A DNA stretch of 64,000 bases from Myxococcota bacterium (GCA_041687695.1 JAWLBL010000022.1:1-64000), one strand, 5' to 3'; positions 2,401 through 27,765 are shown, counted from the first letter of the stretch. Program-made: numbers and translations. Notes: generated from the letters alone by a model not told the origin.

Positions 2401-4326
2401 TCAAGCGGCCCGTTGCAGCCTCCGCCGTCCGACGACCTCGACGAGGGACGCCCCACCTTGCGTCCCGATGCGCCACGAGGTGCGGCCGGCGGTCCCTTCG
2501 GCCGCGATGCGCCCACCATGCAGCAGCTCGAGGTGGCAGGTCACGCACAACGCAATGACGTTGTCGGCCTCGTCGCTGCCGCCCTGCGACCGAAACACCA
2601 GGTGGTGAGGCGTGACGTCCCGCCGCGAACACACCGGGTTGCTGCACTGCCAGCGGTCACGTCGGTAGATCTCCCGATACCGGACCTCCTCATCCAGCGT
2701 GTGCCCCCAGGCCTTCCACACTGACGCGACCAGGAAGGCGATGAAGCTGGCTCCCACGCCCGTCCGTCGCCACTCGCGCCTGACCCGCTGCCAGAACTCG
2801 GCGACGTCGGCGCGCAGCCGGAGTCGCACGGTCACCGTCCCGGCCCCGCTCCGCAGCACCAGGCGTTCATCGTCCTGAGATGCGGACATCTGGATCGTCT
2901 GCGGCGTCGAGTCGCCGTCATCCTGGCCAGGGGCGTCCGCGTCCTTGGTTGGAGCGGGCGTGCCGTCCGACTCCGAGGAGTCCCGAGCGATCTCGGGCTC
3001 CGTCCCCCTCATCGGGCCACCGGCCAGCGCCCAGGCCTCGATGGCTTGGAACTCCGCCATCAACGCGTCGCTGGGCGGCGTCGGCGCTCGCTGCTCGATG
3101 ACGGCCAGGGTCTCCACCGCGTCGACCTCCTCGCGCAAGTGCTTGACCGTCCGCTCGGTCGCCCGCGTGACCCAGGCGGCCTCGGTCCCGGCGCCCGCGA
3201 CCCGTCCCAGCAACAGCGCCGCCTCGAACCCGATGGTCCCTGCCTGCAGGGCCGCCCCCACCTCGGGCAACCGCTCGGCCCGGCGGGCCAGGGTCACTCT
3301 CGCCTTCAGCCCCGAGACCGACATCCCGACCCGTTCGCGCACGTACTGCGCCTCGCTCGCGTACCCCAGCCGCCCCCACCCGCGCGCCGCCAGAAAGCGC
3401 GCAGCGACTTCGCCCAGCGCCAGGTCTCGCCGCGCCAGCTCCGCGCACCCGGCGCGGATCACCTCGTCCAGCTCACGCTCGCCTTGTGGCAATGACTCGT
3501 CGTCCTCGTCGAGCACCGGGACCTCGACCGTCTGCATCAACTCCTCGCAGTAGGCCTCCAACTCGGCGCGCTGGGCAGCGGCAGCCTCCTGGTCGACCTC
3601 GTCCCACCTGCGCGCCGCGCCATCCTCGGAGACCGCCTCGCCCGTCAGCGCCAGGATGAGCGTGGCCGCCTCGGCGAGCATCGCGTCGACCACCTCGTCG
3701 TTGGCGGACGTCCGCGCGATCGCCCGGACCAGCCGCCGCGTCACGTCGAACATCCACGCCTCGTCCCGCGACATCGTGATCTGCAAGGTGACGCGCTCGT
3801 CTTCGGCATCGTCAGCCGTCTCCGAGGTCGCCACCGTGGCCGTCGCTCCCCCTCCGCCCTCCTTCACCATGACGCGCAGCTGCCGAACCGTCCTCGACCG
3901 CGCCAGCTCGAGCCACTCGGCCTCCGTCTCTTCGGTCGCGATTCGCCCGACTACCTCGGCCGCGCTCCACGAGATCTCGCCCCGCCTCAGCGCCTCGCGC
4001 ACCCTCGGCAACCGCGCCATCTGTCGCGCCACGACGCGCTCGCGCGCCGCCCACGCTCCGGTCCGCTCGCACCGCTCCAGCACGTACGCGCTGAAGCTGG
4101 GGAATCCCAACCGCAAGTGCCCGCCGCTGCTTCCGAGCGCCTCCAGGGCCTCGGCCACTCTCAGCCGAGCCGCCCCGACCCGCCGCCCCAACCGCACCAG
4201 AGACACGTCCATCTCGAGCAGCTGCCGCAGGCTGACCACCTCGCGCGAAGGCACCTCTCCCCGCGCCCGCGCCTCGGCCTCTTGCTTCGCACGCCACCGA
4301 GCCCATCCCGACTTCCGTTGCGTCAT
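2401..4326 (-). CDS. DUF222-like HNH endonuclease (HNH-1)
   Basis: C-terminal RDRWQC..C..HH....SQGGSD..DN...LC..CH HNH motif; two internal helical repeats (LGFPSFSAYVLER.. and LGYASEAQYVRER..). Confidence 0.85.
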   Translation of the reverse strand: MTQRKSGWARWRAKQEAEARARGEVPSREVVSLRQLLEMDVSLVRLGRRVGAARLRVAEALEALGSSGGHLRLGFPSFSAYVLERCERTGAWAARERVVARQMARLPRVREALRRGEISWSAAEVVGRIATEETEAEWLELARSRTVRQLRVMVKEGGGGATATVATSETADDAEDERVTLQITMSRDEAWMFDVTRRLVRAIARTSANDEVVDAMLAEAATLILALTGEAVSEDGAARRWDEVDQEAAAAQRAELEAYCEELMQTVEVPVLDEDDESLPQGERELDEVIRAGCAELARRDLALGEVAARFLAARGWGRLGYASEAQYVRERVGMSVSGLKARVTLARRAERLPEVGAALQAGTIGFEAALLLGRVAGAGTEAAWVTRATERTVKHLREEVDAVETLAVIEQRAPTPPSDALMAEFQAIEAWALAGGPMRGTEPEIARDSSESDGTPAPTKDADAPGQDDGDSTPQTIQMSASQDDERLVLRSGAGTVTVRLRLRADVAEFWQRVRREWRRTGVGASFIAFLVASVWKAWGHTLDEEVRYREIYRRDRWQCSNPVCSRRDVTPHHLVFRSQGGSDEADNVIALCVTCHLELLHGGRIAAEGTAGRTSWRIGTQGGASLVEVVGRRRLQRAA

Positions 4327-4352
4327 GGTCCGCTTCTCCCGTTGGACCGGCG

Positions 4353-4382
4353 ACTATGCTGCACGGGTGTTCAGTTGGTCAA
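4353..4382 (-). promoter_or_regulatory. Putative sigma70-like promoter of HNH-1
   Basis: Minus strand TTGACC-N18-CATAGT about 27 bp upstream of the ATG, preceded by an A-tract. Confidence 0.45.
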
Positions 4383-4495
4383 GAGCTTTTTTGGGGGGAA
4401 GCTCTCCATCCTCGTGGCTCAGGCGTGGGAGGGCCGCGCCCTGGGTCTCATCCCGGGTGAGTGGGCCGTGCCTTCCGCCGGGGAGCGGAGCACGC

Positions 4496-5150
4496 ATCCA
4501 GATGTCCGAATCCAGGGTCGCGATAGGCCAGGCATTGGCGCTTCAGTCCTCGACGTGTCCATCCGGATGTCCGAATCCCAGGTCGCGATAGGCTAGGGGT
4601 CGGTGGTCAGTTCTCGACGCGTCCATCCAGATGTCCGAATCCCAGGTCGCGTTCGCCAGTAGGCGTTGGCGCTCACAGTCCTTCACGCGTTCATCCTGAT
4701 GTCCGAATCCCAGGTCGCGTTCGAGCAGGCGTCGGCGCCAACAGTCCTGTCCTTCACGCGTTGATCCAGATGTCCGAATCCCAGGTCGCAATAGGCCAGG
4801 CGTCGGCGCTCAGTCCTTCACCCCGTCAATCCAGATGTCCGAATCCCAGGTCGCGATAGGCTAGGGGTCGGTGGTCAGTTCTCGACGCGTCCATCCAGAT
4901 GTCCGATTCCCAGGTCGCGATAGGCCAGGCGCCGGCGTTTCAGTCCTTCACGCGTCGATCCAGATGTCCATATCCCATGTCGCGATAGGCCAGGGGGCGG
5001 CGGTCAGTTCATGACGCGTTCATCCAGATGTCCGAATCTCAGGTCGCGATTGGCCAGGCGTTGGCGCTCAGTCCTTCACGCGTTCATCCAGAGGTCCGAA
5101 TCCGCAGTCGCGTTCAGCCACGCATCGGGGCTTCAGCCCTTCACGCCGTG
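4496..5150 (+). repeat. Tandem array of 10 units of 64-71 bp with conserved 27-nt core ATCCAGATGTCCGAATCCCAGGTCGCG
   Basis: Unit starts at 4496, 4561, 4625, 4693, 4764, 4829, 4893, 4958, 5022, 5086; linkers more variable but mutually homologous. Confidence 0.95.
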
Positions 5151-5308
5151 GCCCGTGACGATGAGACGGACTGCTCGCTGCCGCCGCATCCTGGCTCTAC
5201 GCCATCCACGGCCCCTCGAGGGAGGCCAACTCGGCCGCGACCAGGGCGACCAACTCTCGCTCGTTCAGTTCCTGCAGCGCGACCCGAAGCCGTCCCGCAA
5301 GGCCGGCT

Positions 5309-5394
5309 GACCCGCCAGCCTGCCCGGTCCAGACCCGCCAGCCTGCCCGGTCCAGACCCGCCAGCCTGCCCGGTTCCAGACCCGCCAGCCTGCC
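5309..5394 (+). repeat. 23-bp tandem repeat GACCCGCCAGCCTGCCCGGTCCA, three copies plus a partial fourth
   Basis: Directly visible; third copy has a 1-nt insertion. Confidence 0.9.
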
Positions 5395-5635
5395 GTATCG
5401 AACCGAGCCAGCGGAGGGACGCGAGCTTGCTCGCCCTTTCGCGCCGTGGCTCGCGGCCGGCCTCTACGCGATGCTGACGGGTCTGCTCGAAGGGGAGGCT
5501 ATTGAAGCATGCTGAATATGCCAGTCACGTGCGGCGAGCCGCGCGATTTCGGCCCGGTTGACGCCGTGTGCTCCAGTCCACGTCATTCGCTCGGAGGATA
5601 CGAGCTCGCTCGTGGCACCGTTCGCGCTGGCCCTC

Positions 5636-5977
5636 TCAGGGGGAGGCAAAGGGCGCTTCGGGAACTTCGGGCGCGGGGACTTCGGCCTCCGTGAGAGGGA
5701 TGGTGACGGAGCAAATGCAAACCTCCGTAGCGGCCTCGAAGCTGCATAACCAATCGTAAGGCGAGTCTCCGACGTCGGCGCAGCAGTCGGCGTCGTCGGC
5801 CACCGTGCAGTGATCCGGACAGATCTGATCGGCGACGCCATGGCAGGCCGCGATGCGCGCGGTGCCCGGCTCGATGTCTTCGAGACAGCCGGCCGGGAGC
5901 AGGGCGGCGAGCGCGAGGGCGGCGCCGAGGACTTGGCTTCGAAGCAGCGTTGCCCCTGCGTGGTTTGATAGCGACAC
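5636..5977 (-). CDS. Small Cys-rich lipoprotein
   Basis: GTG at 5977 with AGGAGG 6 nt upstream; lipobox LPAGC; CHGVADQICPDHCTVADDADCC resembles the protein at 13327-13779. Confidence 0.7.
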   Translation of the reverse strand: MSLSNHAGATLLRSQVLGAALALAALLPAGCLEDIEPGTARIAACHGVADQICPDHCTVADDADCCADVGDSPYDWLCSFEAATEVCICSVTIPLTEAEVPAPEVPEAPFASP

Positions 5978-6165
5978 GACCAGCCTCCTGGATCTTCGGG
6001 TCAGGAGGCCAGCATGCGCCGTTGGCGGGGCAAGGGCAAGGGCGATCGCCGACGCGCACGAGCTCGCTCGTGCTGAGCACCGCGCAGTCTGCTGCGTCCA
6101 AGCCGCTGGACGGCCCACGCTCGCGCGGGCTCACTTGGACCGCGCCGCCCGCGGCCCAACTGGGG

Positions 6166-6534
6166 CTATGGCTCGGAACGATCGCTTCCGTCCGAGCCGG
6201 GGGCCGACCCGGGTCTCCCTTCCATCCCGGTCGGATCGGCCATCAGCAACTCCTCGTGCAACATGAAGAGGTCGTCCATGTCCAACTGTTGCTCGCCCAG
6301 CATGTACAAGACCGAAAAGGCGGCTTCGTAGGACGCGCTCCGCACGAGGAGTGACAGGTCGCGACGCGAGGCGCCCAACGCCAGCAGTCTCTTGACGACT
6401 TCCCCTTCGTCCGAGAAGGAGCCGTTCGGTTCCAACTCCGACGCGCGGATGGAATTGTCGATCCAGTGCTCCGCCATCGCGGAGTTGATGACCTCATCCC
6501 AAACGAGCCTCAGAAACTGCTCTCTTCTCGTCAT
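6166..6534 (-). CDS. Hypothetical protein (acidic, helical)
   Basis: 122-aa ORF with RBS-like AGGAG upstream and protein-like composition; lower GC than neighbours. Confidence 0.65.
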   Translation of the reverse strand: MTRREQFLRLVWDEVINSAMAEHWIDNSIRASELEPNGSFSDEGEVVKRLLALGASRRDLSLLVRSASYEAAFSVLYMLGEQQLDMDDLFMLHEELLMADPTGMEGRPGSAPGSDGSDRSEP

Positions 6535-6572
6535 TGCAGCACGCTCTCCTGCGCTCCCGATCGGCTCTCCGA

Positions 6573-6656
6573 CGCGTGCGCGCCGACGCCCAGGAACTCA
6601 GCGCCCGCGGCGGACAACTCGGAGAACGGATCTCTGAAGTCTCGGTTGATGCCCGT
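6573..6656 (-). pseudogene. N-terminal remnant of a nucleotidyltransferase (toxin-antitoxin type)
   Basis: Reads (T)GINRDFRDPFSELSAAGAEFLGVGAHA, like the MNxDFxDxxxxLxxxxxEYLxVGxHA start of such NTases; start codon is ACG and the similarity stops after GAHA. Confidence 0.55.
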
Positions 6657-6822
6657 CGCCGCCTCGGAACGCGTCCTGCTCGCCAACCGTCTCCCAGGCT
6701 GCGGCGAAGATGGCTTCGGGACCGCAGCGGAGCCAGAACTCGCGGTCGAAGGCCCCGTCGTCCGGCTCCCCCCGGCGGAGGACCCGCGACATGGTGACTC
6801 GGCGCTCGCGACCCGTTTCCAT
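6598..6822 (-). CDS. Small protein of the type found upstream of TA nucleotidyltransferases
   Basis: 74 aa METGRERR...DREFW...PRLQRSVLRVVRR; overlaps the NTase remnant. Confidence 0.55.
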   Translation of the reverse strand: METGRERRVTMSRVLRRGEPDDGAFDREFWLRCGPEAIFAAAWETVGEQDAFRGGDGHQPRLQRSVLRVVRRGR

Positions 6823-7104
6823 GCACCCAAACTTGACCGACGTGGCAGTCGCGGTCACGGCGCGGCTCGGTGTCCTCAGGCGATAGGCCGACTGGCCATA
6901 CCCGGGGCTACGGTCGAAGCTCGATGTCACCGCTCGCGGCGCGCCGCGGAACGGCCCGCTATCCGGCGCGCCGCGGAGGGCGTTGACACGGAGGGGGAGG
7001 GCGGCGAGGGTTCGGCCATGGCAAACGCGTTCCGAGCGGTTCGAGGAGAGCAGGGCCGGCGGGTCGAGCTCGGGCGTCAGGCGAACCTTTCCGGCTCGAA
7101 GTTC

Positions 7105-7938
7105 GTGCTGCAAGCGCTCGGTGCGGACCTGACCCGGTTCCTCTTGGCCGCCACCTTCGTCGCGCTGACGGCGTGCGGGCAACCGGGCGGGACGCGATCA
7201 CCGGCGCAGGCCCCATTCCCGGAACCCCCGCCGGTCGCGCCGGCCGTGGCCGTCCTGCCTTCGCCCATCGCCATCGCGTGTGAGGCCGGGGATGACCGCG
7301 CTTGCTTGACTCTAGACAGGGCTGCGGGCGGGGACCCGGTCAGCGCGGTGCGTGAGGCGTTGCGGCGCCCGGGCGAGGCCGAGCCGACGGACGAGACGCT
7401 CCGCGATCGATGCAACGCCAAGGATGGCGCGGCCTGTTCGGCGCTCGCGCAGCGTCTGGCGGGCGCTACACCGCCGGACGAGCCGCGCGCACGGGGGCTC
7501 ACGAGGCTGGCGTGCGCGTACGGGTACTGGACGGCCTGCAACGACCTCGTCGCGCACTACGACGACCCGCTCGGGCACAAGGTCGGCCGGCAGGGCTTCG
7601 AGCGCGCCTGCGCCAGGGGCGATGGAGCCGGCTGCTACAACGCCGCCCTCCGGTATCTGCCAGGGCTCCAGGGGCTCGATGCGGACATCGAGCTGGGGAC
7701 GGGGCTGCTGAACCGGTCGTGCGAGCTCGGCTACGGGACCGGGTGCTACACGCTGGCCCATCGCCAGATCATGGCGAGTCCGCCGATGGCGCCCGAGGCG
7801 TTCGTGGCGTTGATGCGGCGCGCCTGTGAAGGGGGCTCGCCCGATGCCTGCAGCGAGCTGAAGACGCCGCGGGGTGAGCTCGAGGAGGCCTGCGAGGCCG
7901 GGGACCCGGTGGCCTGCGCGCTGCTGGGTGCGCGCTGA
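7105..7938 (+). CDS. Sel1-like repeat (Cys-rich, HcpA-type) lipoprotein; start uncertain
   Basis: Lipobox LTAC; repeated ACxxGxxxGC/AC units. Confidence 0.75.
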   Translation: MLQALGADLTRFLLAATFVALTACGQPGGTRSPAQAPFPEPPPVAPAVAVLPSPIAIACEAGDDRACLTLDRAAGGDPVSAVREALRRPGEAEPTDETLRDRCNAKDGAACSALAQRLAGATPPDEPRARGLTRLACAYGYWTACNDLVAHYDDPLGHKVGRQGFERACARGDGAGCYNAALRYLPGLQGLDADIELGTGLLNRSCELGYGTGCYTLAHRQIMASPPMAPEAFVALMRRACEGGSPDACSELKTPRGELEEACEAGDPVACALLGAR

Positions 7939-7963
7939 CGGCGCGGATCCAGCCAGCGCGAGG

Positions 7964-8593
<630 letters not shown>

Positions 8594-8688
8594 CGGCGGG
8601 CTCCGGGTAGGTGACCGCTCGAAGGTAGCCGTGCAGGAACGCTCGGGACAGGTTCGACTTCGGGACCTGGGCGTGCAAGGATGCACGC

Positions 8689-9570
8689 ATGGCCTGGGAC
8701 GACCTGCGGTACGTGCTCGCGCTGCGGCGGGCGGGGAACCTGACCGGCGCGGCGCGTGAGCTGGCCGTGGCGCGCACGACCGTGGGCCGGCGGCTCCGCG
8801 AGGTCGAGCAGCGGCTGGGGGTGCGGCTGTTCGACCGCACCCCCGAGGGCCTGGTCCCGACGGCCGCCGGGGCCGAGCTGGCCGAGGCCGCCGAGGGCAT
8901 CGAGGGCGAGGTGCTGACGGCGGAGGGGCGCCTGCTGGGGCGCGACGCCGAGCTTCAGGGCGGCCTGCGCGTGTCCACGCTTGACTTCGTGTTTGGCGGC
9001 TTCGCCGAGGTCTTCGCCTCGTTCCTCGAGCGCTACCCGCGCGTCGACCTGACGGTGTGCGCCTCGACCGAGCAGGTCTCGCTGGCGCGGCGCGAGGCCG
9101 ACGTGGCGCTGCGCCTGGCCAACGAGCCCGGCGGCGATCTGGTCGGCCGGCGCCTCGTCCGCTTGCAGTTCGAGGTGTATGCGGCGCGTTCGCTGGCCGA
9201 GCGGGTCGGGCTGGAGACGCCGCTGTCGGAGTGGCCGTGGCTCGACGCCGACGAGCGCAGCGGCAACCGTTGGCTCGAGACCTGGCGCGCGTCGCACGCG
9301 CCCGGAGCGCGCGTAGCGTTTCGGACGCCCGACTACGGCGTGATGCGTCGCGCGCTGGGGCAGGGGATGGGCGTGCACTTCCTGCCGTGCTTCGACGGCG
9401 ACGCCGACCCGACGCTGGTCTCGCTGGGCCACCGCCTGACCGAGCCGGTGCGGCATCTGTGGGTGCTGACGTTGCCCGACCTGCGCCACAACCGGCGCAT
9501 CCGCGCCTTCATGGACCACTGCTACGAGGCCTTCGAGCCGTATCGGCAGGCTGCGCTCGTCGGGGAGTGA
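8689..9570 (+). CDS. LysR family transcriptional regulator
   Basis: WDDLRYVLAL..GNLTGAAREL..TVGRRL..LGVRLFDR HTH; EADVALR. Confidence 0.95.
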   Translation: MAWDDLRYVLALRRAGNLTGAARELAVARTTVGRRLREVEQRLGVRLFDRTPEGLVPTAAGAELAEAAEGIEGEVLTAEGRLLGRDAELQGGLRVSTLDFVFGGFAEVFASFLERYPRVDLTVCASTEQVSLARREADVALRLANEPGGDLVGRRLVRLQFEVYAARSLAERVGLETPLSEWPWLDADERSGNRWLETWRASHAPGARVAFRTPDYGVMRRALGQGMGVHFLPCFDGDADPTLVSLGHRLTEPVRHLWVLTLPDLRHNRRIRAFMDHCYEAFEPYRQAALVGE

Positions 9571-9591
9571 GCGCAGGGAGGGCCGATGTCG

Positions 9592-9728: not shown

Positions 9729-9778
9729 ATAGTGGACGCGCCCGACCGGCAGGGCCGAGCGCGCCCACCTCGGGTTGG

Positions 9779-16800: not shown

Positions 16801-17283
16801 GAGGCCGGGGCAGTCGAGCGAGTTGACGCAGGCCTGGTGCGGGACGCATTGCTGGGCGATGCAGTCGGCCGGGTCGGGGCAGTCGCTGGCCTGGAGGCAG
16901 GCGACGCACAGGCCCAGCGCGGCGGCGCAGAGGGGCTGGCCCGGCGTCGAGGCGCAGTCGGCGTCGGATGCGCAGGCCACCGGCGGCGAGTCGATGTCGG
17001 GCGCGTCGTCGCTGGTGTCGGGCGCGTCGTCGCTGGCGTCGAGCGCGTCGTCGCTGGCGTCGAGCGCGTCGTCGCTGGCGTCGAGCGCGTCGTCGCTGGC
17101 GTCGGTCGCGTCGTCACTTGCGTCGTCGGAGACCTCGCCACCGGCCCCGTCGGGATCGTCCGCCACCTCGAGGGCGACGTCGACGAGCCCGCCTACGCCT
17201 TGGGAGGGCGAGTCACAAGCGGCGAGGGCGAGCGCCGCGAGGGCGAAGAGGGTGAGCGGCCGTCGCGAGCCGAGTGTCATCAT
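13864..17283 (-). CDS. Large Cys-rich surface lipoprotein
   Basis: Lipobox LAAC; DASDDAL repeats; C..D.DC repeats; C-terminal NGGFE..W.. beta domain. Confidence 0.8.
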   Translation of the reverse strand: MMTLGSRRPLTLFALAALALAACDSPSQGVGGLVDVALEVADDPDGAGGEVSDDASDDATDASDDALDASDDALDASDDALDASDDAPDTSDDAPDIDSPPVACASDADCASTPGQPLCAAALGLCVACLQASDCPDPADCIAQQCVPHQACVNSLDCPGLQVCADGRCADCEADADCSEGAMCASGTCYPATPCDSDKDCTPQGQLCDKSKGICSQCTADPDCPPAYHCAEPAPGAPLACLVDVCVPGQMKCSGSDLATCIENGAGFETTACLDGESCAPSADGAACVQWVCPPGAHCQGDSAVTCSEDGLTVLDTVDCVAADKVCVAGACFEKENLEDGYPAAGLLVRITAPGQGRPSATVGQPEVVLSGLLFGQADSLAWHIEGGDEGDITPKTFWHSEPIALASGDNVVTVTATQGDVVTTDTVTITYNPGLPPNLTLRVRPGFLWKSEPTQLIATLEVPSVDALQPTGITLVELAPDGGSIDLGPMVDSGATSAYGDEVAGDRILSHKTSVTCAGQGQWYRARLAVTEPEPFAAWSEPVFVPCLERFNPLTCQSRKAALTEAQGLAASGQDVDSILAALEQHPSVAQAGLAEGPGHSLWVRFDDGILGAVLLAPTGLRGGSGADSLPASPGFAPAAIEAQPVVGARDALVLAPFLSQFEGTDDGPAVAEALSNSQCPHYSVEAGDVLWGPMATLERFRALSRYGVVSISTHGEALFGDLMPQAKAALGWRHQGAQEVLWSGEPIACDALQTAPKSCTVTAADPTGGCPSKTRCVTVLGSGGGSASGYCEDRTQADLRLGRVVLTNRGFAMTPAFFEHYAEAGLPNSLINLGACRTFHNGTLASALIARGAAAVTGFSDYVDSAWARDRVVALFEALLSGVPLLDAHTGGADPAHPASKWRSLAATDLDLSYPGLINGGFESGRTDAWRTEGDSRVVSGLSGSSPPEGGFMGLVSTGLGLTVQSGSLEQDVCIPEDVTTLTLTWKFLSEEFKEFCGSSFQDKFHVALNDPEGEQVVVVEVKVDDLCGPTDGSCGACPNPTACDLACVGTSACSLDDTGTSCEGTYPCNCGRFHQGLTPSAAKFDVGGVFETPWITTTHDVSALAGQGPFTLRIFASDTGDSIYDTVILVDDVRIE

Positions 17284-18597: not shown

Positions 18598-18604
18598 GGG
18601 GGGG

Positions 18605-18883: not shown

Positions 18884-18958
18884 GGGGCGGGATGATAGCG
18901 GAGGGTGCGGAGGTGACAAGGGGGGCCCCGGAGCGAGCGCGCGCGCGACCGACGCCAC

Positions 18959-21900
18959 CTACTTCTTCTTGTCCTTGTCCTTCTTGCTGGACTCGCTGTT
19001 CACCTTGTCGAGGAGCTTGGCCAGCGTGAACAGGCACGAGGTGATGTACAGCGCGTCGATCTTGATCTTGCGCAAGGCGGGATGGGCTTCGCCGTGCTTG
19101 GCGAGGATGCGCTGCCACTCGGCGGCGGCGGCCTGGGCGATGTCGATCGCGCCCTGCAGCTTCGTCCAGTTGCTGCTCATCATCGCGGTGGGGTCGTCGT
19201 TGGTCACGAGGATGCGCGCGATGTCGATGCAGTAGGCGGCGGCCGCGTGGCTGCGATCCTGGGGATCGTCCATCGCTTCGATGAGCGAGATGAGCGTGTC
19301 CTCGTACATGTTCAGGCGCGGCAGCGCGCTCAGCTGGCCCAGGACGCCGCGGCCGATGGTCAGGTGATCGGCCTGCTGCTTGGCGAGCTTCGGGTCGGCG
19401 ACGATGGTGCGCGTCTTGCCCCCGTGCTTGCCGGTCTGCTTGCTCTTGGCGTCCTTCGCCTCGGCCTCCAGCTCCTCGGGGGTGAGGGTCGAGCTGTCGA
19501 GCGAGTGGACGCCCACCTCGTGCGCCAGCAGCCCGACGGTCTGTCCCACCGAGAACGCCTCGACCTGGTAGTCGTCGAGGTTCACGGTGACGCGGTTTCC
19601 GTCGCTGGTCGTGCAGGCGATGTCATTGGTCACGGTGGGCCGAAGCCGGATGCGGATGACCAGCGGCGGCTGCCGCTCGGCGATGAAGCGCGAGCCCAGG
19701 ATCGCCTTCGCGACGCCCCGGGTCCAGGCGTCGAGCTTCTTGGACCGGCCCAGGACGTTGCCTGTCGCCTGGAACTCGATGCGGGTCCCGGCCTCGTTCT
19801 TGTCGAAGTAGTAGGTCTCGAACTCGCCACCGCGGACGATTCCCTGGCGCCCCTCGAGGATGAGGCGGACCGTCGCGAGCTGAAGCTGGGCGCTCTCGTT
19901 GCCGTCCGCGTGCTTGTCGAAGTGGCCGGCCAGCTCGATCAGTTCGTCGGTCTGCATCCCGTCGTAGATGTCGTAGAGGCCGCTCTGGTCGATCTCCTCG
20001 CGCGACTTGTCGATCTTGGGCTTGTCGCGGCGCAGCATGAGGTCGTAGACGCCCGCAAGCTCCTTGTTGTCGTCGACGCGCTTGAGGACCTCGTAGGCGT
20101 CCCAGTCGCTGCCGCCCTTCTTCAGGAACTCGCGCGTGAGGCGCTCGCGCTCCTTGATCTCGGGCAGCTCGAGCTTCTTGGAGCGGCTGAAGATGAGCTC
20201 GGAGAGGATGTCCTCGTGCAGGGTCCAGGCGGAGTCGAACGAGGTGCGCTCGTCGTCGCTGTCTTGATCGGCGTCCAGCACATAGGTGTAGAGCGTGGCG
20301 AGCGCGTACGACGGCGCCGAGTGCCCGCCCATGCGGTGCGAGCCGACGTCCACCTGCCGCGTGCGAGGGCTCATCACGCCCTCCTCGCCCGACTTGCCCT
20401 TGCCCATGTCGTCGGACTCGACCCAGCCGCCGTGGCCGTCGCGCATGACCGCCACGTAGTGGCCGCCCTCGTGGTGCGAGAAGGTGTTGCGGACGATGAA
20501 GGCCTGGAGCCGGTACCGGGGGCCGGGTCGACGCGTGCCGGTCACCGACGCTGGGAGCCGGAAGACCTCGGGCATGTCGATGTGGTCGCGGCCGCTCTGG
20601 CGGAGCATGCCGATGGAGAGCACCTCCGGGAACGAGGTGGCGCGGCGGGTCCTCTCGTGAGGGTTGGCGATGCCTACGCCGTCGCGCCGTTCGCGGGTCA
20701 CGAAGTAGGACTCGAGCGCCTCCTCGAGCGTCGCGTGGCCGACGGCGGTGAGCTGCAGGACCGTCTCCTGCATGCGGTTGTACTGCGGAGCCTGGAGCGG
20801 GTCGTCGTACACCACGGCTTCGCTCGTCTCGAGCAGCCGATCACCGGGCATGATGCGCTGCAAGATCGCCATCAGGACCTGGCTGGCGTCCTGCTGCTGC
20901 GTGACCCCGCCGACCAGCAGGCCCAGGGAGTCGAGCACGCCCAGCAGGTGGCGGACCTGCTTGGCCGGAACCGTCTCGTTGCCGCGCAGGGTCTGCAGCA
21001 TCGGGCCGATGGTGACCTGGAGCAGGCGCGCCTCGCTGCCCTCCTGCGTACGGTTGACGAGCGGATCGAACATCCGCCGGTACGCGGGTACGGCGGCGAT
21101 GAGGTTCAGCAGACTGGCCGCGTAGCAGCTGTTCTGGACGTGCTCGACGCCGCCCCCCGAGCGCGCCTCGACCTCGACCGCGTCGCCGTTTTCGAGCATC
21201 GGCAGCGCGCGGTCGAAGGTGAAGGTGCTCGTCGCGAGCGTGAGGAACAGATCGCGGATCTGCGGCGCCGACTTCGGAAGCGGCTCGGACTCGGGCATGA
21301 GCTTGAGCCCGAGCAGGACGGTTGCGAAGACGCTCGGGTCGATGCTCAGGACCTGGACGAGCGGCTCGTCGCGGTGGCGCAGGACCAGGGCCCGTACATC
21401 GTGCTCGCCCTTTCGTTCGAGCTGGCCCTTGAGCCACATGAGGTACTTCTGAACGCGCGCGGGGAGCTGCGCGAAGATGCTGCTCAGCAGCCGTAGGTTC
21501 TGCTGGTAGTGACTCAGCAGGACCAACGCCTGCTGTTGCGAGGGCACCTCGTCGCCGTCCTCGCCCTCTTCCTTGTTCCCGAGGCCGTGTCCCCCCTTGC
21601 GCTGGACCGCAGGCGTGCCCGCACCCGACGCGGCAGGCTGCGGCGCGAAGGTGTCGAGGAGGGCCTCGGCCGACTCGCCGCTGACCACCCGGTCCGCGAC
21701 CGCGTCGGCGTTGCGTTCGTAGTCGTCGCCCGAACGTCCGAGCCCCCCTTCGAGCTGGACCCCGGCGCGCTGCTGGACGACGTGTGCCGCCTCGTGCGCC
21801 GCAGTGTGCAGGCTCGGCGCCGATTGAAAAGCCACCTTGTTGCCCGTCGCGTAGGCCTCGGCGCCGAGCGCGCTGGCCGCGCTGGCCGCCGCGCCGCCGG

Positions 21901-22198
21901 TGTGCGCCTCGATGCCGCTGACGTCGTGTCGACCGAAGCTACGTTGGATGCGATCGGCGTGGGGCAGGGGTCCCGCGCCGCCGGAGGTCCCCTGCGCCGC
22001 AACTTCCGTGGGCGCGGCCGGCTGCAGCGAGCGCTCGGCGGCGCCCCCGGGGGTCAACGCTGCGCGCCCCTCGTCATAGCTCATCGCCTGCAGCGACTTG
22101 CGGAAGACGCCCAGCCGGTCGCCCGACGAGACGGCCGCAGCCGGCTCATCGCGCGTCGTTTGGTCCCGTCGCGCGTCCGATTCCACTCGCTGAGTCAT
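18959..22198 (-). CDS. DUF4157 (eCIS core) protein with USP/peptidase C19-like domain
   Basis: DUF4157 motif [21 protein letters not shown] Cys box NSCY, QQDA, His box GGHYVA..WVESDD. Confidence 0.85.
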
Positions 22199-22336
22199 GT
22201 GGCGCCCCGCCCGTTGGTCGCAATCGCATCGCAGGAGAGGCGGCGAGGCTACCAGCGTGCGGCGCGTAACGCCATGACACCGGATGACACGATCCGGCGA
22301 TGCGCGGGCGAAGGGATCTGCGCGCGGGAGCGGGCC

Positions 22337-23161
22337 TCACAGGCCCAGGTGCAGGCCGCCGCCGAAGGAGGCGAGCATGTAAAAGCCCGTCTCGCCGGGG
22401 AAGTAGCCGATCTCCAGGCGGCCCGACAGCCCGGCGCGCTTGCCGAAGATGGACTCGGCCCACAGGCGCGCGCCGAAGCGGCCGGCGTCGTCGGGCTCGG
22501 CGTCGAAGGACTGCACCACGTCGAACAGGACGTCGAGGCCGGCGTTCATCCAGCGGTAGTTGAAGAAGCTGGCCTTGTAGCCCTCGACGTCGAGCGAGTA
22601 GCCGGCCGAGTTGAGGACCGACAGGCCGGCGTAGGCGGTGAGGTGCGTCGAGCGGCCCTCGAAGCGGTCGCCGTCGACCTCGTACTCGGTCGGGTTGTCG
22701 CGCAGGATGAGGCCGGCGCCGAGGCCGCGGCTGTTTCGGTTGGCGACGGGGATCTTGACCGACTTGGTGTGGATCATGTCGCCCGAGCGGGTGGACTCGA
22801 GGGTGACCGACTCGTGCTCGAGGTCGACGGTGGTGCGGTGGAAGCCGGCGCCGGCCTCGAGGCGCACCGGGGCGTGCGAGGAGGCGACGCCGAAGAGCAG
22901 CGGCGTCACCAGATGGGCGCGGACCATCAGCGCGTCGCCAAGTTCGAAGACGCCCTGCAGGCTGGTGACGAAGCCGGCGTCCGGGTCCGAGAGCTGATAG
23001 CCGAGGACGTTGAACGAGATGTGCAGGTTCCCGTAGTCGATCTGCTGGTCGGTGATGCGGACGTTGACCTTCTCGGACGTCGTCTCCTGCGCCGCGGCGG
23101 AGGCCGGAGCGAGGGCGAGCGAGAGCGCGAGCGCGGTGCGGGCGAGGGGGCGGGACGGCAT
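22337..23161 (-). CDS. Exported protein, probable outer-membrane beta-barrel
   Basis: Signal peptide AAA-QE; alternating beta-strand pattern ending GGGLHLGL. Confidence 0.65.
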   Translation of the reverse strand: MPSRPLARTALALSLALAPASAAAQETTSEKVNVRITDQQIDYGNLHISFNVLGYQLSDPDAGFVTSLQGVFELGDALMVRAHLVTPLLFGVASSHAPVRLEAGAGFHRTTVDLEHESVTLESTRSGDMIHTKSVKIPVANRNSRGLGAGLILRDNPTEYEVDGDRFEGRSTHLTAYAGLSVLNSAGYSLDVEGYKASFFNYRWMNAGLDVLFDVVQSFDAEPDDAGRFGARLWAESIFGKRAGLSGRLEIGYFPGETGFYMLASFGGGLHLGL

Positions 23162-23310
23162 GGACGGACCTCGTGCGGGCGGAGCCGCGGACCGGGGAGA
23201 CCGCGGGCGGTCGAGGCCTGTCGGGCGCGACCGCGGGGCCGATTGTGATCGGCGCGCGCGCGCGCGGGGATGCTCATCCTGCGGTGCTCATGGGAAATGA
23301 GCAGATGTGC

Positions 23311-23772
23311 TCAGTCGCCCGGGTCGAAGGTCGTGAGCGCCGCCTCGAGGGCGGGGCGCACCTTGCTGAAGCGCTCGTAGGGGCCGGCGGCCTCGACCAG
23401 GACGACGCGGTCGCCGACCACGAAGACGGTCTCGGACAGGACCCAGTCCTCGGCGCCGTGGGGCAGCAGGAAGTCCAGGCGGCAGCCGGGGAGGCGCCGC
23501 TGGGTCTCGAAGCACTGCTCGTGCTCGAACACGTAGCCGCGGGCGGTGAGGTGCCGCTTCATCGCGTCGACCCAGAAGGGCAGGGTGGCGACCGGCTCGT
23601 TGTCGACCTCGCGGGCTTTGAGCAGCACGCCGTCGGCGGTGATCATCTTGAAGTCCGAGCCGTCCTCGTACTTCTTGAAGCCCTCGGGGACGGCCATCTG
23701 GTAGGTGGGGCCGCAGGCGACGAGGGCGGCGGCGGCGGCCGGGGCGAAGAGGGACCGGAGGAGGCGCCGCAT
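23311..23772 (-). CDS. Hypothetical lipoprotein
   Basis: Lipobox LVAC; homologous to the C-terminal domain of 24428-25654. Confidence 0.8.
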   Translation of the reverse strand: MRRLLRSLFAPAAAAALVACGPTYQMAVPEGFKKYEDGSDFKMITADGVLLKAREVDNEPVATLPFWVDAMKRHLTARGYVFEHEQCFETQRRLPGCRLDFLLPHGAEDWVLSETVFVVGDRVVLVEAAGPYERFSKVRPALEAALTTFDPGD

Positions 23773-24431
23773 CAGAAGTCCCTCAGGAAGCGGTCGAGGT
23801 CGACCGTGTTGAGCCAGCCGAAGGGCGAGCGGACGTAGGTGATCTTGTCCTGCCGCTGGAAGTTGAACTGCACGGTGACCACGGCCCAGCGGGCGCGCTC
23901 GCGGGCGACGCGCAGGCGGCCTCGGACGTGCTCGAGCTCGGCGACGAGGGCGGTCATCTGGCGCTCGATCTGCAGCGTGGCCTGCACGTTCGAGTCGTCG
24001 ATGAACCGGCGCAGGCGCTCGAAGATCTCGGTCTTGCTGCGGAGCTGGGCCTCGAGCTGGGCGATCTCGTCGGTCACGTCGACGCGCTCGAGCCCCTTGT
24101 CGATGACGTGGCCGCGCGCGGCGATTCGCTGCATCACGGCGTCGAGCTGGCCTGGCGGCACCTTGAGGTGGACCCGATCGTCGGTCATCAGGGTCGGGAA
24201 GCCGCCGAGGGCCTTGGCGTCCTCTACGATGGCCTGCCGCGAGGCGACCGGGTGGGCGACCTTGATGAAGATGCGCGCCATGAGCGCGGTCTGGCGGCCG
24301 TCGGTGGCGCCTTCGGCGAGGTCGGTGACGTCGGCGGCGGGCTCGGCCGGCCGGGCGTTGGAGGGGAGCGACTCGGCGAGCGCCGGTGAGGTCGTGAGCA
24401 GCAGGGCGGAGAGGATGGCGCGTCGCATCAC
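23772..24431 (-). CDS. DUF4349-like exported protein
   Basis: LGG......LKVP, DVTDEIAQLEAQL coiled coil. Confidence 0.75.
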   Translation of the reverse strand: MMRRAILSALLLTTSPALAESLPSNARPAEPAADVTDLAEGATDGRQTALMARIFIKVAHPVASRQAIVEDAKALGGFPTLMTDDRVHLKVPPGQLDAVMQRIAARGHVIDKGLERVDVTDEIAQLEAQLRSKTEIFERLRRFIDDSNVQATLQIERQMTALVAELEHVRGRLRVARERARWAVVTVQFNFQRQDKITYVRSPFGWLNTVDLDRFLRDF

Positions 24432-25654
24432 TGCACCCGGAAGGTCGAGAGGGACTGGACGACCGCGTCGCGGTGCTTGGTGAAGGCGTCCTCGGTCGGG
24501 AAGAAGCCCTCGACGACGAAGAGATCCTCGCCGGCCGCGTGGACGGCCACGAGGTAGACCCGCGGGGCGACGTCCTTGTTGCGGAAGAAGCGGTAGGTGA
24601 GCGCGCCGGCCTGGCCCTGGGCGACGGTCTCCTCCTCGCGGCCGTCCATCTCGAACTGGACCGCGGCCATCCAGAAGGCGGCGTCGCCGCGCGGCTCGTT
24701 GTCGACGCGGGCGGCGCGCAGCATCGAGGTGTCGGCCGACTGGGCGCGGAAGACGTCGTCGTCGTCGAAGAGGACGAAGCCGGCGGGGACCTTCATGGTC
24801 AGGTCGTCCTTGCCGTCGTCGAGGGTGACGCGGTGGGGGCGCAGGTCGCGCACCCAGGAAAAGGGCGAGCGCGGGAGGTTCCTGGCCGAGGTCTCGACGA
24901 TGGGCTCGAGCTCGAGGGTGATGGTGAAGTAGTCGACCAGGTTCTGCAGCGAGGCCAGGGTCGAGGTGAGGCTCTCGATGAGCTCCGACTGGCGCTTGAT
25001 CTCCTGCAGGATGCGCAGGCGCTCCTCGGAGTCCTTGGTCTGCTCGAGCAGGGCCAGCAGGCGGTCGCGGGCATTCCTGGCGACCTCGAGGCGGGCGGAG
25101 AGGTCGGTGAACTGGGCCGTGACGTCGAGGGCCTCGACGCGGCGGCCGAGCACGTCGCCGAGCTGGGCGAAGCGGGCCAGGACCGAGTCGAAGTCGGTGG
25201 CCGGGATGCGGACCACGACCGCGCGGGCGGACATCGAGGCGATGTAGCCGCCGGCCTGCTGGGTCAGCTCGGTGATGGCGTCGATGGCGCCGAGCAGGCG
25301 CTTGACCCGCAGGCGCAGGTAGCCGACGTAGACGACCATCGCCTCCATGGGGGCGGAGGGCTTGTCGGCCTTGGGTGTCGAGGGCGCCTGTTGTCTGGGC
25401 TGGGGCGACTGCGATGGCTTGGCGGCTTTGGACGGCGACGACGGGCGGCGCGCCGAGGTCGAGGCGACCTGCGGGCGGGCGTAGTCGTCGGCGACCGCTT
25501 CGCCCTCGAAGTCGTAGTGACGCGCGCCGGGCGCCGGCGCCGGCTCCTGGCGGTAGCTGCCGTCGCTGTGTTCGTAGGGCTTCGCGGCGCCGCAGGCGCT
25601 GACGAGCAACGCCAGCGCGGCGGCGAGCGGGGTGAGGACGCGGGGGTGACGCAT
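24428..25654 (-). CDS. DUF4349 domain lipoprotein
   Basis: RBS GGAGG; lipobox VSAC; GGYI..VRIPA..F, DVTAQFTDL.ARL. Confidence 0.8.
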   Translation of the reverse strand: MRHPRVLTPLAAALALLVSACGAAKPYEHSDGSYRQEPAPAPGARHYDFEGEAVADDYARPQVASTSARRPSSPSKAAKPSQSPQPRQQAPSTPKADKPSAPMEAMVVYVGYLRLRVKRLLGAIDAITELTQQAGGYIASMSARAVVVRIPATDFDSVLARFAQLGDVLGRRVEALDVTAQFTDLSARLEVARNARDRLLALLEQTKDSEERLRILQEIKRQSELIESLTSTLASLQNLVDYFTITLELEPIVETSARNLPRSPFSWVRDLRPHRVTLDDGKDDLTMKVPAGFVLFDDDDVFRAQSADTSMLRAARVDNEPRGDAAFWMAAVQFEMDGREEETVAQGQAGALTYRFFRNKDVAPRVYLVAVHAAGEDLFVVEGFFPTEDAFTKHRDAVVQSLSTFRVQ

Positions 25655-25737
25655 GGGCGGGCCTCCTGAAGGCCCGCGTAGGGTAGCGGGGACCGGAGGC
25701 GGTGTCACCGGGGGGCTGTAGCCGCGCCCAGGCCGCT

Positions 25738-26042
25738 CGTGAGATTCGCCACGCGTGTAGCCTCCGCTTCGGCCGGCCTCAAGGGCTTTCTCCCCCTTGG
25801 CCGGCCTGGTCGGCCGGCCAATTCCTCGCGGACGCGAAAGCCCTTGACCCCGGCCTTCGCTGCGGCTGGGGGGCCAATAGCGGGCCGGAAGGGGACCTTC
25901 CGGGCCGCTGGCGCGTCCCGGCTGGGCCGAGATGCGGGCTGCATGGGTTGGGCGCGCCTCTCGGCGTCGCGGGAACTAATGGCTCAGGTATTTAGTCGTC
26001 CCGGGACGACGCTGAAGCCGCCGGTCGTCGTCCCGGGACGAC
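25738..26042 (+). repeat. Left long imperfect inverted repeat of the HNH-2 element
   Basis: Aligns with the reverse complement of 27454-27765; carries GTCGTCCCGGGACGAC at 25995 and 26027. Confidence 0.9.
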
Positions 26043-26049
26043 AGGTGTT

Positions 26050-27216
26050 TCACAGCGCCAACTGCCCGGTGGGGCAAGGCGAGTTCGTCGATGTCTTTCC
26101 GGCTCGTCGCTTGCGTTCGATGAAGGCGGCTCCCAGCTCCTGTCGGGCGATGAGCTGGTTGTGGGCCTGACAGACCAGGCTGAGGTTGTCGGCCGAGTGA
26201 GCCCCTCCCACCGCGAAGGGCTCGTGATGATGGAACTCGAGCCGCCTCCGCTCCCGACAGCGCCCCGCCGGGCCCTGGTAGCTACAGCGCAACCCGTCCC
26301 GCTCGACCATCGCCCGCTTCACCTCGGCCGGGATGGCCCGGCTGCGGTCCGTTGGTTCGAGGGGTCCCTCCGCGACGGCGTCACCCTGCTCGTCCTGGCG
26401 CTCCTGCTCGCTCACTTCAACGGCGGCCTTGGCCGGCCCCTCGGCCTTCGGAACCGCCGCGGCCTTCCTGGCCTTCGGCTTGCGTCCGACCCCGAACCGC
26501 TGCTTCTTCTTGGCGAACAGAAAGGCGTCCAGGGCCATCTCGAACAGCCGCTCATAATCCCCAGCGGCGACCTGGTGACCGGCCAACGCCATGGCCTCCT
26601 CGAGCTTGCCGGCCACCCGCGCGTCGACGGTGATCTGGACCTTGAACCGCGTCTCCGACAGCGGCTCGACCGTGTGGCGAGGCCTTGGCGCCCTCAGCTC
26701 GACTCCGTCGTCCCGGGACGACGCGACCGACTCGCTCTCCTTCGGCGCGATCGTTCGCCCCACGCGTCGCACCGGCACTTTCGCGACCCGCGCCGGCACA
26801 TCCGGCCGAGGCGACCATTTGGCCACCAGCAGCTGCAGTTCCTGGCGGGTCTTCCCCGCGGCCTCCGTCAGCCGCTCCTCGGCATTGTCCTCAGCCAGAT
26901 GCTGCCGCAACGCCCTGAGTCCGCTGAGGCTCAATCGACCATCAGCCAGCATCTCCAAGCCAATCGGGTGCTTTCGAACGACCTCGACGACCTTGGTGTA
27001 CGTCCAGGCTTGGTCCTCCGACAGTCCCCACCGCGCCATGCACCAGTCGGCCAGCGTCGACGCCCCGTCGGTCAAGTGAAGGTCCCGCCGCGCGACCTCG
27101 ACCAGGCAGGCCACCAGGTTCGCCGTCGCCCTCCGATGCACCCCGACCAGCCGGTCGGCCGTGGCCTTCAGGTTCCCATCGGACAGCTTCGCCAGACAAG
27201 CCGTTCGCTCGCTCAT
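26050..27216 (-). CDS. DUF222-like HNH endonuclease (HNH-2)
   Basis: RBS GAGGAG; SRAIPAEVKRAMVERDG.RC...C...LEFHH..P...GG.....NL...C..HN. Confidence 0.85.
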   Translation of the reverse strand: MSERTACLAKLSDGNLKATADRLVGVHRRATANLVACLVEVARRDLHLTDGASTLADWCMARWGLSEDQAWTYTKVVEVVRKHPIGLEMLADGRLSLSGLRALRQHLAEDNAEERLTEAAGKTRQELQLLVAKWSPRPDVPARVAKVPVRRVGRTIAPKESESVASSRDDGVELRAPRPRHTVEPLSETRFKVQITVDARVAGKLEEAMALAGHQVAAGDYERLFEMALDAFLFAKKKQRFGVGRKPKARKAAAVPKAEGPAKAAVEVSEQERQDEQGDAVAEGPLEPTDRSRAIPAEVKRAMVERDGLRCSYQGPAGRCRERRRLEFHHHEPFAVGGAHSADNLSLVCQAHNQLIARQELGAAFIERKRRAGKTSTNSPCPTGQLAL

Positions 27217-27453
27217 CGCGGACACTCCTCGTCTTCGTGAGCGCGAAGCATACCACAGGGGTTCCGCGCCCTTCGGAGCACCCCCTGGACGGCCGTTCAG
27301 GCTCTCCGGACACCCTGCGAGGACCCTCACCCCCGATCAGTGCCACCACGAGCCCGCCAGGGGCCTCCACGGGCCCGTCCTCGCCCGACCCTCGGTCGCT
27401 CCCGAAACCCGCCCTCAGACTGTCAACCTCTTTTTCGACTCTCTGCCGTCTCC

Positions 27454-27765
27454 GTCGTCCCGGGACGACGGCCCGCGCCTGCAGCGTCGTCCCGGGTAAC
27501 TACCTATGCGTTTAATTCCAGCGCGCCTCAGACCCGCGCCCACCTGCCGCTTCCAGCCACCTTGCCCCGACCGGGACGCGCCAGCGGCCCGGAAGGCCCC
27601 CTTCCGGACGGGGGCTGCGCCCCCGAGCCCCGCTTTGTGCAGCCGCAGCGAAGGCCGGGGTCAAGGGCTTTCTCGTCCGCGAGGAATTGGCCGACCGCAG
27701 GGCGGCCAAGGGGGAGAAAGCCCTTGAGGCGGCCTGCGCTGCGGCTACCCACGTGACGACTCCCG
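27454..27765 (-). repeat. Right long imperfect inverted repeat of the HNH-2 element
   Basis: Inverted copy of 25738-26042; palindrome at 27454 and degenerate copy at 27486. Confidence 0.9.

Follow-up and report, generated by a model that had tools for sequence, protein, structure and literature searches.

Two HNH nuclease loci of a Myxococcota genome with DNA motifs repeated beside the gene and within a linker of the encoded protein

Two HNH loci and their motifs

The stretch of DNA analysed here, which we call the window, comprises 64,000 nucleotides of a Myxococcota bacterium (GCA_041687695.1, JAWLBL010000022.1:1-64000) and corresponds to contig C22 of the genome we label G000 (7.97 Mb in 63 contigs). 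It contains two divergent genes for HNH proteins, here gene 1 and gene 2, each of which is accompanied by a DNA motif that recurs beside the gene and once within it, where it is translated as part of the protein. Such motifs had been described in a first-pass annotation of the window. Both in-gene copies were confirmed, each in a low-complexity linker and far above chance expectation, and the two motifs proved to be unrelated to each other.

Gene 1 (2401-4326, minus strand) is an open reading frame (ORF) of 641 amino acids whose product matches the Pfam models DUF222 (PF02720; 33.1 bits against a cut-off of 24.4, residues 291-397) and HNH (PF01844; 26.7 bits against a cut-off of 21.4). The cysteine, histidine and asparagine residues of its HNH motif are invariant among 17 homologues. 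A helical, helix-turn-helix-like domain, a linker and a strand/helix segment follow one another twice in this protein, and the HNH domain comes last. The in-gene copy of motif 1, a 25-nt word (ATCCAGATGTCCGCATCTCAGGACG) with the core CCAGATGTCCG, lies at 2871-2895 on the minus (coding) strand, where it encodes IQMSASQD within the acidic second linker and stands before the segment GTVTVRLRLRADVAEFW; a core of the CCAGATGTCCG type occupies the equivalent linker in gene 1 homologues. A non-coding array (4474-5131, plus strand) lies 150-800 nt upstream of the start codon and comprises ten tandem units of 64-71 nt, in each of which motif 1 runs the other way from the copy inside the gene. The consensus of this array, with up to three mismatches allowed, finds ten matches in the window, nine in the array and one in the gene, where shuffled sequences lead one to expect 0.00. 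With up to five mismatches the whole genome offers twelve matches, of which ten fall in the array and one in the gene, and the last, with five mismatches, lies elsewhere. The array has no excess of single-strand structure (DNA fold z of -0.84), and the gene 1 locus has neither inverted end repeats nor the outer hairpin unit found at gene 2. Between the array and the next gene (5300-5412) there are four to five further tandem units of 23 nt (CCCGGTCCAGACCCGCCAGCCTG).

Gene 2 (26050-27219, minus strand; likely ATG at 27216, 388 amino acids) is matched in Pfam by the HNH model alone, at 20.9 bits and thus slightly below the cut-off of 21.4. That model matches all 21 gene 2 paralogues scanned, and the DUF222 model matches none of the 21 members scanned. 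Its motif is an exact 16-bp palindrome, GTCGTCCCGGGACGAC, which at 26707-26722 is read in frame as SSRDDG. A pair of copies follows directly after the stop codon (25995-26010 and 26027-26042), and the upstream region (27454-27496) holds a full copy at 27454 and a partial one at about 27483-27496. Exact copies number four in the window against 0.18 expected, a count reached in none of 100 shuffles. Genome-wide there are 33, nearly all of them at paralogous HNH loci or at contig ends. The annotation had held that each motif matches its own flanks alone; this is true of both motifs in the window, and of motif 1 across the genome, but not of motif 2 with its 33 exact copies.

Unlike gene 1, gene 2 is enclosed by inverted repeats. 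Their arms (25776-26042 and 27454-27730) are 79-97% complementary, so that the element possesses terminal inverted repeats of the kind known from transposons. An outer hairpin unit marks each end, at 25752-25934 on the plus strand downstream (starting with GTAGCCTCCGC) and, inverted with respect to it, at 27558-27750 on the minus strand upstream; the unit accounts for 47 BLAST rows in the genome and has a sharp common edge. A dinucleotide TA beside the outermost motif copies was considered as a target duplication and rejected, as it falls inside the longer inverted repeat.

Gene families and copied units

Gene 2 is one of 22 paralogues in the genome (tblastn; 51-81% identity), of which 21 are full-length and open and one is truncated at its N-terminus. 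Over 210 pairs of paralogues the ratio of nonsynonymous to synonymous divergence (dN/dS) spans 0.15-0.60 with a median of 0.31, and the residues H329, H330, N344, C311, C320, C349 and H352 are invariant in the family. These values indicate that the paralogues are functional, old and under purifying selection.

The paralogues reside in repeated elements of 2-3 kb with motif arrays on one or both sides, and the plan of these elements is regular. Outermost lies the outer unit of about 170 nt, with a sharp start at GGTAGCCTCCGC; it is present upstream at 19 of the 22 loci, the remaining three being interrupted by a contig end 306-461 nt away, and in inverted orientation downstream at seven; both end units were seen at five loci. 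A spacer of about 110 nt separates the unit from the upstream array, in which a 20-nt motif recurs with a period of 24-33 nt in 1-31 copies, as counted by regular expression, and which stops roughly 268 nt short of the start codon. Next come the conserved leader and the gene, with the linker copy at nucleotides 448-520 of the coding sequence in 20 of the 22 paralogues, the exceptions being C44, with a one-mismatch variant, and C8_246680, with no copy in that linker. Most members of one subfamily (B, below) have an extra copy some 53 nt ahead of the stop codon, and ten loci carry a downstream array of at least four inverted copies. Periods of 24-33 nt, a 20-nt motif and constant fillers of 4-13 nt, with no unique spacers, led us to reject a CRISPR array as an explanation of these repeats. 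The second linker of the paralogues (alignment columns 270-345) contains in-frame 21-nt repeats of a different sort, which encode SVEQAGE-like heptads and vary between paralogues from none to about eight copies (for example L018, L017 and L010).

The gene 2 motif class has 361 instances in the genome, and 261 of these fall no more than 3.5 kb from one of the 22 genes, in regions that together make up 2.3% of the genome. Of the 100 instances away from the paralogues, 65 form eight clusters, which are gene-less arrays or contig ends. The cluster at C7 201565-202473, for example, consists of both end units and an array with no gene between them, and further gene-less clusters of outer units and arrays occur at C3 293014-295050, C27 85583-86499 and C47 29657-30425. 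Gene-less clusters may be either non-autonomous or decayed derivatives, or else pieces cut off by contig ends.

The outer unit folds strongly as single-stranded DNA (z = -4.65), and among 33 copies 12 of 50 predicted pairs are kept through changes on both sides. Although non-coding, the units are 85-94% identical, as compared with a median DNA identity of 78% for the genes. The 150 nt outside them are G-rich on the inward-reading strand, with mean fractions of 0.51 for G and 0.22 for C. At 34 of 41 element ends the excess of G over C is greater than 0.15, frequently in the form of G-tract minisatellites whose unit differs from locus to locus, as at C4 343054, C6 74791 and C8 248580 and, more weakly, at 25600-25750 and 27750-27900 of the window. 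The elements may prefer such sequence as a target, or the processing of their ends may generate it.

Two subfamilies can be distinguished among the paralogues, and the motifs differ between them. Subfamily A comprises seven paralogues including the window copy (71-81% identical to the window protein), with in-gene and flank motifs of the form GTCGTCCC-GGGACGAC, the hyphen marking the boundary between half-sites. The 15 members of subfamily B (52-57% identity to the window protein) have flank motifs of the form GTCGTCCC-GGGGCGGAAG and in-gene motifs of the form CCG(T/C)CCC-GGGGCGGA. The in-gene copies of A and B lie about 25 alignment columns apart in the same linker. Wherever the motif varies, the encoded peptide varies too (SSRDDG, PSRGGA, PPPRGG), but the form of the DNA word is preserved; it is thus the DNA that is constrained.

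Similar constraint is apparent in the gene 1 family. Gene 1 has a single paralogue in the genome, on contig C16 (36% identity, tblastn), in which the motif occurs twice within the gene and an exact match of 16 nt is present some 400 nt upstream. A scan of genome contigs for homologues gave 79 loci when an alignment served as the query and none when a single protein did. The core CCAGATNTCCG is found in the linker before the strand-helix segment at 16 of 18 loci and at 40 of 58 further loci, where it encodes QMS, VQIS or PEIS in one to five tandem in-frame copies. Taken with the linker copy in 20 of 22 gene 2 paralogues, these counts show that the association of gene and motif recurs in relatives. 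Codon usage was tallied at 41 gene 1-family loci in which the HNH landmark was found, with the tripeptide present in 32. Linker copies were picked by their peptide alone, such that the tally is not circular with the DNA pattern. Serine is encoded by TCC in 50 of 52 motif copies as against 232 of 1511 cases elsewhere in the same genes, isoleucine by ATA in 25 of 30 as against 19 of 558, and glutamine by CAG in all 47 as against 503 of 879. Codon bias of this degree shows a constraint at the level of DNA that extends across genera.

Clear flank copies of a locus's own type were found at four places in this family: the window, with ten; L110/L063, with three upstream; L091, with two that are inverted and 65 nt apart, like the array of the window; and L062, with an 18-nt exact match. 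For 14 of 32 flank matches the in-gene copy of the same locus is the best or joint-best fit, including seven of eight in the window and all three at L110. Six loci (L085, L086, L091, L147, L061 and L077) have a second in-gene GCCAGATGTCCGCC, inverted and about 780 nt upstream of the linker copy, and the resulting inverted pair brackets the second DUF222 repeat.

Two pairs of gene 1-type loci, each in a genome other than G000, are near-identical at distant sites: L083 and L084 agree at 99.95% over 1827 nt and, in another genome, L085 and L086 at 97% over 1768 nt. In both pairs the identity begins just upstream of the -35 element and stops a few codons before the stop codon, from which it follows that the copied unit consists of the promoter and the ORF. 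Neither inverted ends nor a visible duplication accompany these units. Each finishes its ORF in local sequence, and one member of each pair ends in GGCGCTAGC.

Beyond G000, the gene 2 family has a patchy distribution, occurring in 8 of 41 relatives and in 22 of 301 genomes of the phylum (G000 included in both counts), and its carriers are often multi-copy. The gene 1 family likewise occurs in 22 of 301 Myxococcota genomes, and a tblastn search of plasmids with gene 1 gave no match at 1e-8. Elements of the gene 2 family in the genome G011 measure about 2.1 kb and have inverted arms of about 215 nt. As for the surroundings of the two loci in the window, which has 67-77% GC content, both adjoin ordinary, unrelated chromosomal genes (DUF4349, an AurF/DUF455-like protein, and DUF4424/YARHG). 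Other repeats in the window are unrelated to the HNH loci, namely 153-nt coding repeats rich in cysteine codons at 28700-29720 and 21-nt repeats inside large ORFs at 16975-17142.

Protein domains and promoters

The gene 2 protein can be divided into a ParB/KorB-like helical domain, a linker, a strand-helix-helix segment, a second linker and the HNH domain. An AlphaFold monomer model built on a 21-row alignment gives residues 10-130 as all-helical with a predicted local distance difference test score (pLDDT) above 90, the HNH domain at about 70, and residues 140-293, which include the strand-helix-helix segment, below 50. Foldseek found nothing for this model at E ≤0.001, its best hits having E-values of 0.3 or worse; the DNA-binding domains of ParB, Spo0J, Noc, KorB and SopB recur in its list. 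In a fold search independent of Foldseek the top four matches were ParB-parS (6s6h, Z 7.0), KorB (8qa8, Z 6.4), Spo0J (1vz0, Z 6.2) and KorB with its operator (1r71, Z 6.0), with 91-113 residues aligned at root-mean-square deviations of 2.8-5.5. HNH enzymes came next (Z 5.0-5.6), among them GVE2 HNH, Cap5 and McrA at Z 5.1-5.6. The N-terminal domain is a candidate reader of the motif at least as good as the strand-helix-helix segment.

The N-terminal domains of the two proteins are homologous (hhalign E 2e-5, probability 77%, 134 columns). The annotation places both motifs in the same linker; the motif-bearing linker of gene 2 aligns with the first linker of gene 1, and motif 1 lies in the second, so that the two motifs share a kind of place and not an aligned place. 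The strand-helix segment of gene 2 matches the first such segment of gene 1 weakly (E 0.0099, probability 4%). In both proteins the NCBIfam and PADLOC models match the HNH part alone, models of DpdF and of a type IV restriction enzyme being also among the matches. An assignment to IscB was rejected, at 33.3 and 30.7 bits against a cut-off of 175, with the HNH part alone matched and no RuvC domain.

Each gene is preceded by a box resembling those of LexA. The putative promoter of gene 1 (4353-4382, minus strand) reads TTGACC (4382-4377), aa, CTGAACACCCGTGCAG (4374-4359) and CATAGT (4358-4353). Gene 2 has a conserved leader (27247-27426, minus strand) with TTGACA at 27426-27421, CTGAACGGCCGTCCAG at 27300-27285 and TATGCT at 27252-27247. 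Alignment of 21 gene 2-family leaders gives the order TTGACR at about -215, a near-invariant CTGAACGGCCGTCCAG, a GGGG..CCCC hairpin, TATGCT, GGAGG and ATG. The hairpin (27255-27275 in the window) stands between the LexA-like box and TATGCT, and its arms co-vary, as in the GAGG..CCTC of C9. The pattern CTG[AG]AC-N4-GT[CT]CAG has 22 matches in the genome, 19 of them in gene 2-family leaders, and the box is identical in 19 copies; one of the three matches outside leaders, a perfect CTGAACATGCGTTCAG, is found directly upstream of an ORF.

In PMC9705874, the SOS box of M. xanthus is given as CTRHAMRYBYGTTCAGS. Compared by eye with the box in that form, 15 of 16 positions agree for the gene 1 box, between -35 and -10, and 14 of 16 for the gene 2 leaders. 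Among gene 1 homologues, a box with at most one mismatch occurs within 400 nt upstream at 4 of 57 loci, and none occurs in the other 337,811 nt of those loci. This enrichment makes control by DNA damage a reasonable supposition, and the boxes as a whole suggest that both cassettes would be expressed after DNA damage. A tandem repeat of about 86 nt at C9 212400-212600, with no HNH gene nearby, contains a perfect LexA-box-like CTGAACTGATGTTCAG together with CAGTCCCGGGACTG palindromes, and the latter resemble the element motif of G011.

Interpretation and comparison with known systems

We read both loci as selfish nuclease cassettes of the REP13E12 type, flanked by putative binding sites for their own protein, and would give this reading an even chance. 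A ParB/KorB-like helix-turn-helix domain and a strand-helix-helix segment would here be joined to an HNH nuclease in one protein. The motif copies, repeated upstream (for gene 2 on both sides and inverted) and present once inside the coding sequence, would most likely be docking sites for that protein, serving as an operator or as centromere-like iterons, and the in-gene copy would lie in a linker because a linker tolerates whatever peptide the DNA word encodes. Once bound, the protein might act upon its own coding DNA or regulate it. The LexA-like box in the promoter would bring about expression after DNA damage, and the cassettes would persist as multi-copy selfish DNA under purifying selection. 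Signs of mobility are to be seen in the patchy distribution, in the near-identical copies of promoter and ORF at distant sites and in the gene-less derivative. In terms of a dispersed multi-copy gene, which is characteristic of REP13E12, gene 2 has 22 copies and gene 1 has two, and the relatives are multi-copy too. What the analysis shows is the layout of the loci, the surplus of motifs over chance, the constraint on the DNA, the copy number, the selection and the likeness of fold; motif binding, its reading domain, SOS control and the target of the nuclease are inferences.

Several observations weigh against this reading. Firstly, flank copies are found at a minority of gene 1-family loci, 5 of 18 (within 1.5-2.5 kb). 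A looser regular expression gives an upstream match at 15 of 58, several of which appear chance-like or derive from a neighbouring paralogue, and in the VQIS clade the flank copies fit other loci better than their own. Secondly, the motif classes of the gene 2 family are mixed at several loci. C33 encodes a subfamily A protein and its upstream right halves are mostly of B type; C8_246680, a subfamily B protein without the linker copy, has an A-A palindrome near its 3' end; and at C9 and C11 the site nearest the promoter is of B type. Thirdly, the paralogues of G000 show no recent spread, since the smallest dS among their pairs is 0.156. Neither was a target-site duplication identified at gene 2 elements, outside whose end units lie unrelated G-rich repeats, nor an empty site: homologues of the right-hand neighbour occur in 13 of 41 relatives (G000 included), none of which has the left-hand neighbour adjacent. 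Finally, with Z-scores of 6-7, below the 8 under which matches of helical domains are middling, the likeness to ParB and KorB is a consistent lead and not proof.

To these must be added the behaviour of the in-gene copy in more distant relatives of gene 2, where the constancy of position that the annotation had led us to expect breaks down. The palindrome of G011, ACAGTCCCCGGGGACTGT, is upstream at five of five loci, downstream at four and in the linker at none. G034 and G015 have a CCCCGGGG-centred palindrome in the second linker, which joins the strand-helix segment to the HNH domain. At 18 yet more distant loci, no exact word of at least 13 nt is common to linker and flanks; in two of these the same palindrome stands at the 3' end of the gene and upstream of it, and in one a palindrome of the N-terminal part recurs at position -262. 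Repeated perfect palindromes of at least 12 nt were found at 2 of 22 scanned loci alone, L185 and the G011 locus L040. With the copy moved or missing in these relatives, where it lies depends, in the gene 2 family, on the lineage, and not every member shares the design.

A broader proposition goes beyond the two loci, and we offer it tentatively, as possible but short of probable. DUF222-HNH cassettes, REP13E12 included, may form a distinct selfish class in which a damage-inducible nuclease carries domains of the centromere-binder type, arrays of its own sites and an in-gene site, and in which a cis-acting self-recognition, through cleavage or gene conversion, keeps, copies and diversifies the cassette.

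The annotation itself had proposed that the strand-helix(-helix) segment is a ribbon-helix-helix dimer which reads the motif, and that protein and motif co-evolve as private, cognate pairs. We consider this unlikely. Its first part draws on a conserved pattern of β-strand, helix, G-x-x loop and helix, on matches to RHH_5 of Pfam in 4 of 21 gene 2 members and on a best profile match in the PDB to 3no7_A (E 0.43) that runs through the strand and both helices. The last is an 80-residue protein labelled as a putative plasmid related protein; we take it to be a ribbon-helix-helix centromere binder, although the database label does not say so. That tandem iterons are the binding sites of ParR, ParG, omega and other ribbon-helix-helix proteins also counts in favour. 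The strand-helix-helix pattern thus stands, but the RHH_5 matches are weak (best E 0.075), neither they nor that to 3no7 are significant, and the segment falls below a pLDDT of 50 in the monomer model of a protein that contains a better-supported DNA-binding domain. As regards cognate pairs, motif variants do follow the clades, and within each of the two subfamilies the right half-site is common to in-gene and flank motifs. However, seven paralogues share one motif, the classes are mixed at C33, C8, C9 and C11, and the gene 1 family holds one core motif across genera in place of private ones.

Less likely again, in our estimation, is that the motifs are substrates, at which the HNH domain nicks or cuts or recombination starts, thereby driving the copying of cassettes, gene conversion, the exchange of modules at the linker and the growth and shrinkage of arrays. 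Invariance of the catalytic and zinc residues of the HNH domain is in keeping with such a role, as is the placement of the in-gene motif, in one to five tandem copies, exactly at a module boundary. Array lengths from 1 to 31, hybrid half-site motifs and mixed classes would be expected of it, and some relatives have the inverted in-gene pair about 780 nt apart. Identity is higher among the outer units (85-94%) than among the genes (median 78%), which resembles the outcome of concerted evolution. Nevertheless, no junction, excision or inversion product came to light, no public sequencing run being listed for 25700-27800. The recently copied units of other genomes have their limits at the promoter and shortly ahead of the stop codon and not at the motif, and a nuclease that cut its own gene would be costly.

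It is improbable that the repeats are passive, that is, GC-rich minisatellites or hairpins grown by slippage, one unit of which was copied into a tolerant linker, with no protein to read them. Array periods that vary (24-33 nt) and copies that are near-identical are what slippage would leave, and other, unrelated minisatellites adjoin the elements, the G-rich flanks among them. Set against this are the fixed places of the repeats (array end at -268, in-gene copy at +448, further copy at -53 from the stop) across paralogues with dS well above 0.16, the codon bias of the gene 1 motif across genera, and the confinement of the gene 2 motif to HNH loci.

Very improbable, lastly, is a role of the outer unit or arrays as RNA that would guide the HNH protein or serve as its scaffold, in the manner of the omega RNA of IscB. 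The fold of the outer unit and its 12 of 50 pairs kept through two-sided changes would suit an RNA, and the HNH part of IscB is the best NCBIfam match of both proteins. However, the unit has no Rfam match, lies upstream of the promoter elements and also, inverted, downstream, and could owe its pairs to a DNA palindrome whose arms undergo gene conversion. The matches to IscB reach 33 and 31 bits where the cut-off is 175, with no RuvC, and gene 1 has no outer unit and an array with no excess structure.

In high-GC bacteria few multi-copy genes of unknown function are as common as those for DUF222-HNH proteins, which are known mainly as REP13E12 of M. tuberculosis. A DNA word conserved both in the linker and beside the gene supplies a cheaply testable hypothesis as to the target of the protein, the domain that reads it and the time of its expression. 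The word is moreover a clear case of selection at the DNA level overriding codon choice inside an ORF, and 22 diverged copies with two motif classes in one genome constitute a natural specificity panel.

Among the closest known systems is REP13E12, the '13E12 repeat' of Mycobacterium tuberculosis and other Actinomycetota, which shares the multi-copy combination of DUF222 with a C-terminal HNH and the dispersal of repeats of 1.4-2 kb. REP13E12/HNH/DUF222 is named as a repeat class in PMC10589994. The present loci differ in belonging to Myxococcota, gene 2 falls below the Pfam model for DUF222, and the arrays, in-gene motif, hairpin end units and LexA-like box were not found described for REP13E12 in the sources at hand. 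More generally, searches of the openly available full-text literature turned up neither flanking motif arrays nor an in-gene site for DUF222-HNH or REP13E12.

The ParB-parS, SopB-sopC, KorB-OB and Noc-NBS systems furnish the best structural matches of the N-terminal domain. ParB-type sites are palindromes of 13-16 bp, and sopC is a tandem array beside its gene with one palindrome in each unit. Differences from these binders are the absence here of a CTPase domain and of a partner ATPase, the fusion to a nuclease, a non-palindromic motif 1 and Z-scores of 6-7. The ribbon-helix-helix binders of iterons (ParR-parC, ParG, omega, CopG and Arc) offer a likeness in the strand-helix-helix pattern and in a gene beside tandem short repeats, though this fold is a candidate here from weak matches.

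Two groups of selfish elements are also comparable. In phages, the free-standing HNH homing endonuclease gene forms a selfish unit by itself, driven by its own promoter, and the recently copied units in the relatives are likewise a promoter and an ORF alone; the copies described here are, however, chromosomal, multi-copy, old and under selection, and no cognate empty target was identified for them in the relatives compared. REP/REPIN sequences and their RAYT genes resemble the gene 2 element in having a gene between inverted hairpin-forming repeats. They differ in that the protein here is an HNH and not an HUH tyrosine transposase, and in that the hairpin units stay at the gene loci and do not number in the hundreds.

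Regulator sites inside an ORF have precedents in lac O2 within lacZ and gal OI within galE, which lie a few hundred base pairs past the promoter-proximal sites. In the present loci, by contrast, the site lies within the gene of the presumed regulator itself, and is conserved in a linker across the family.

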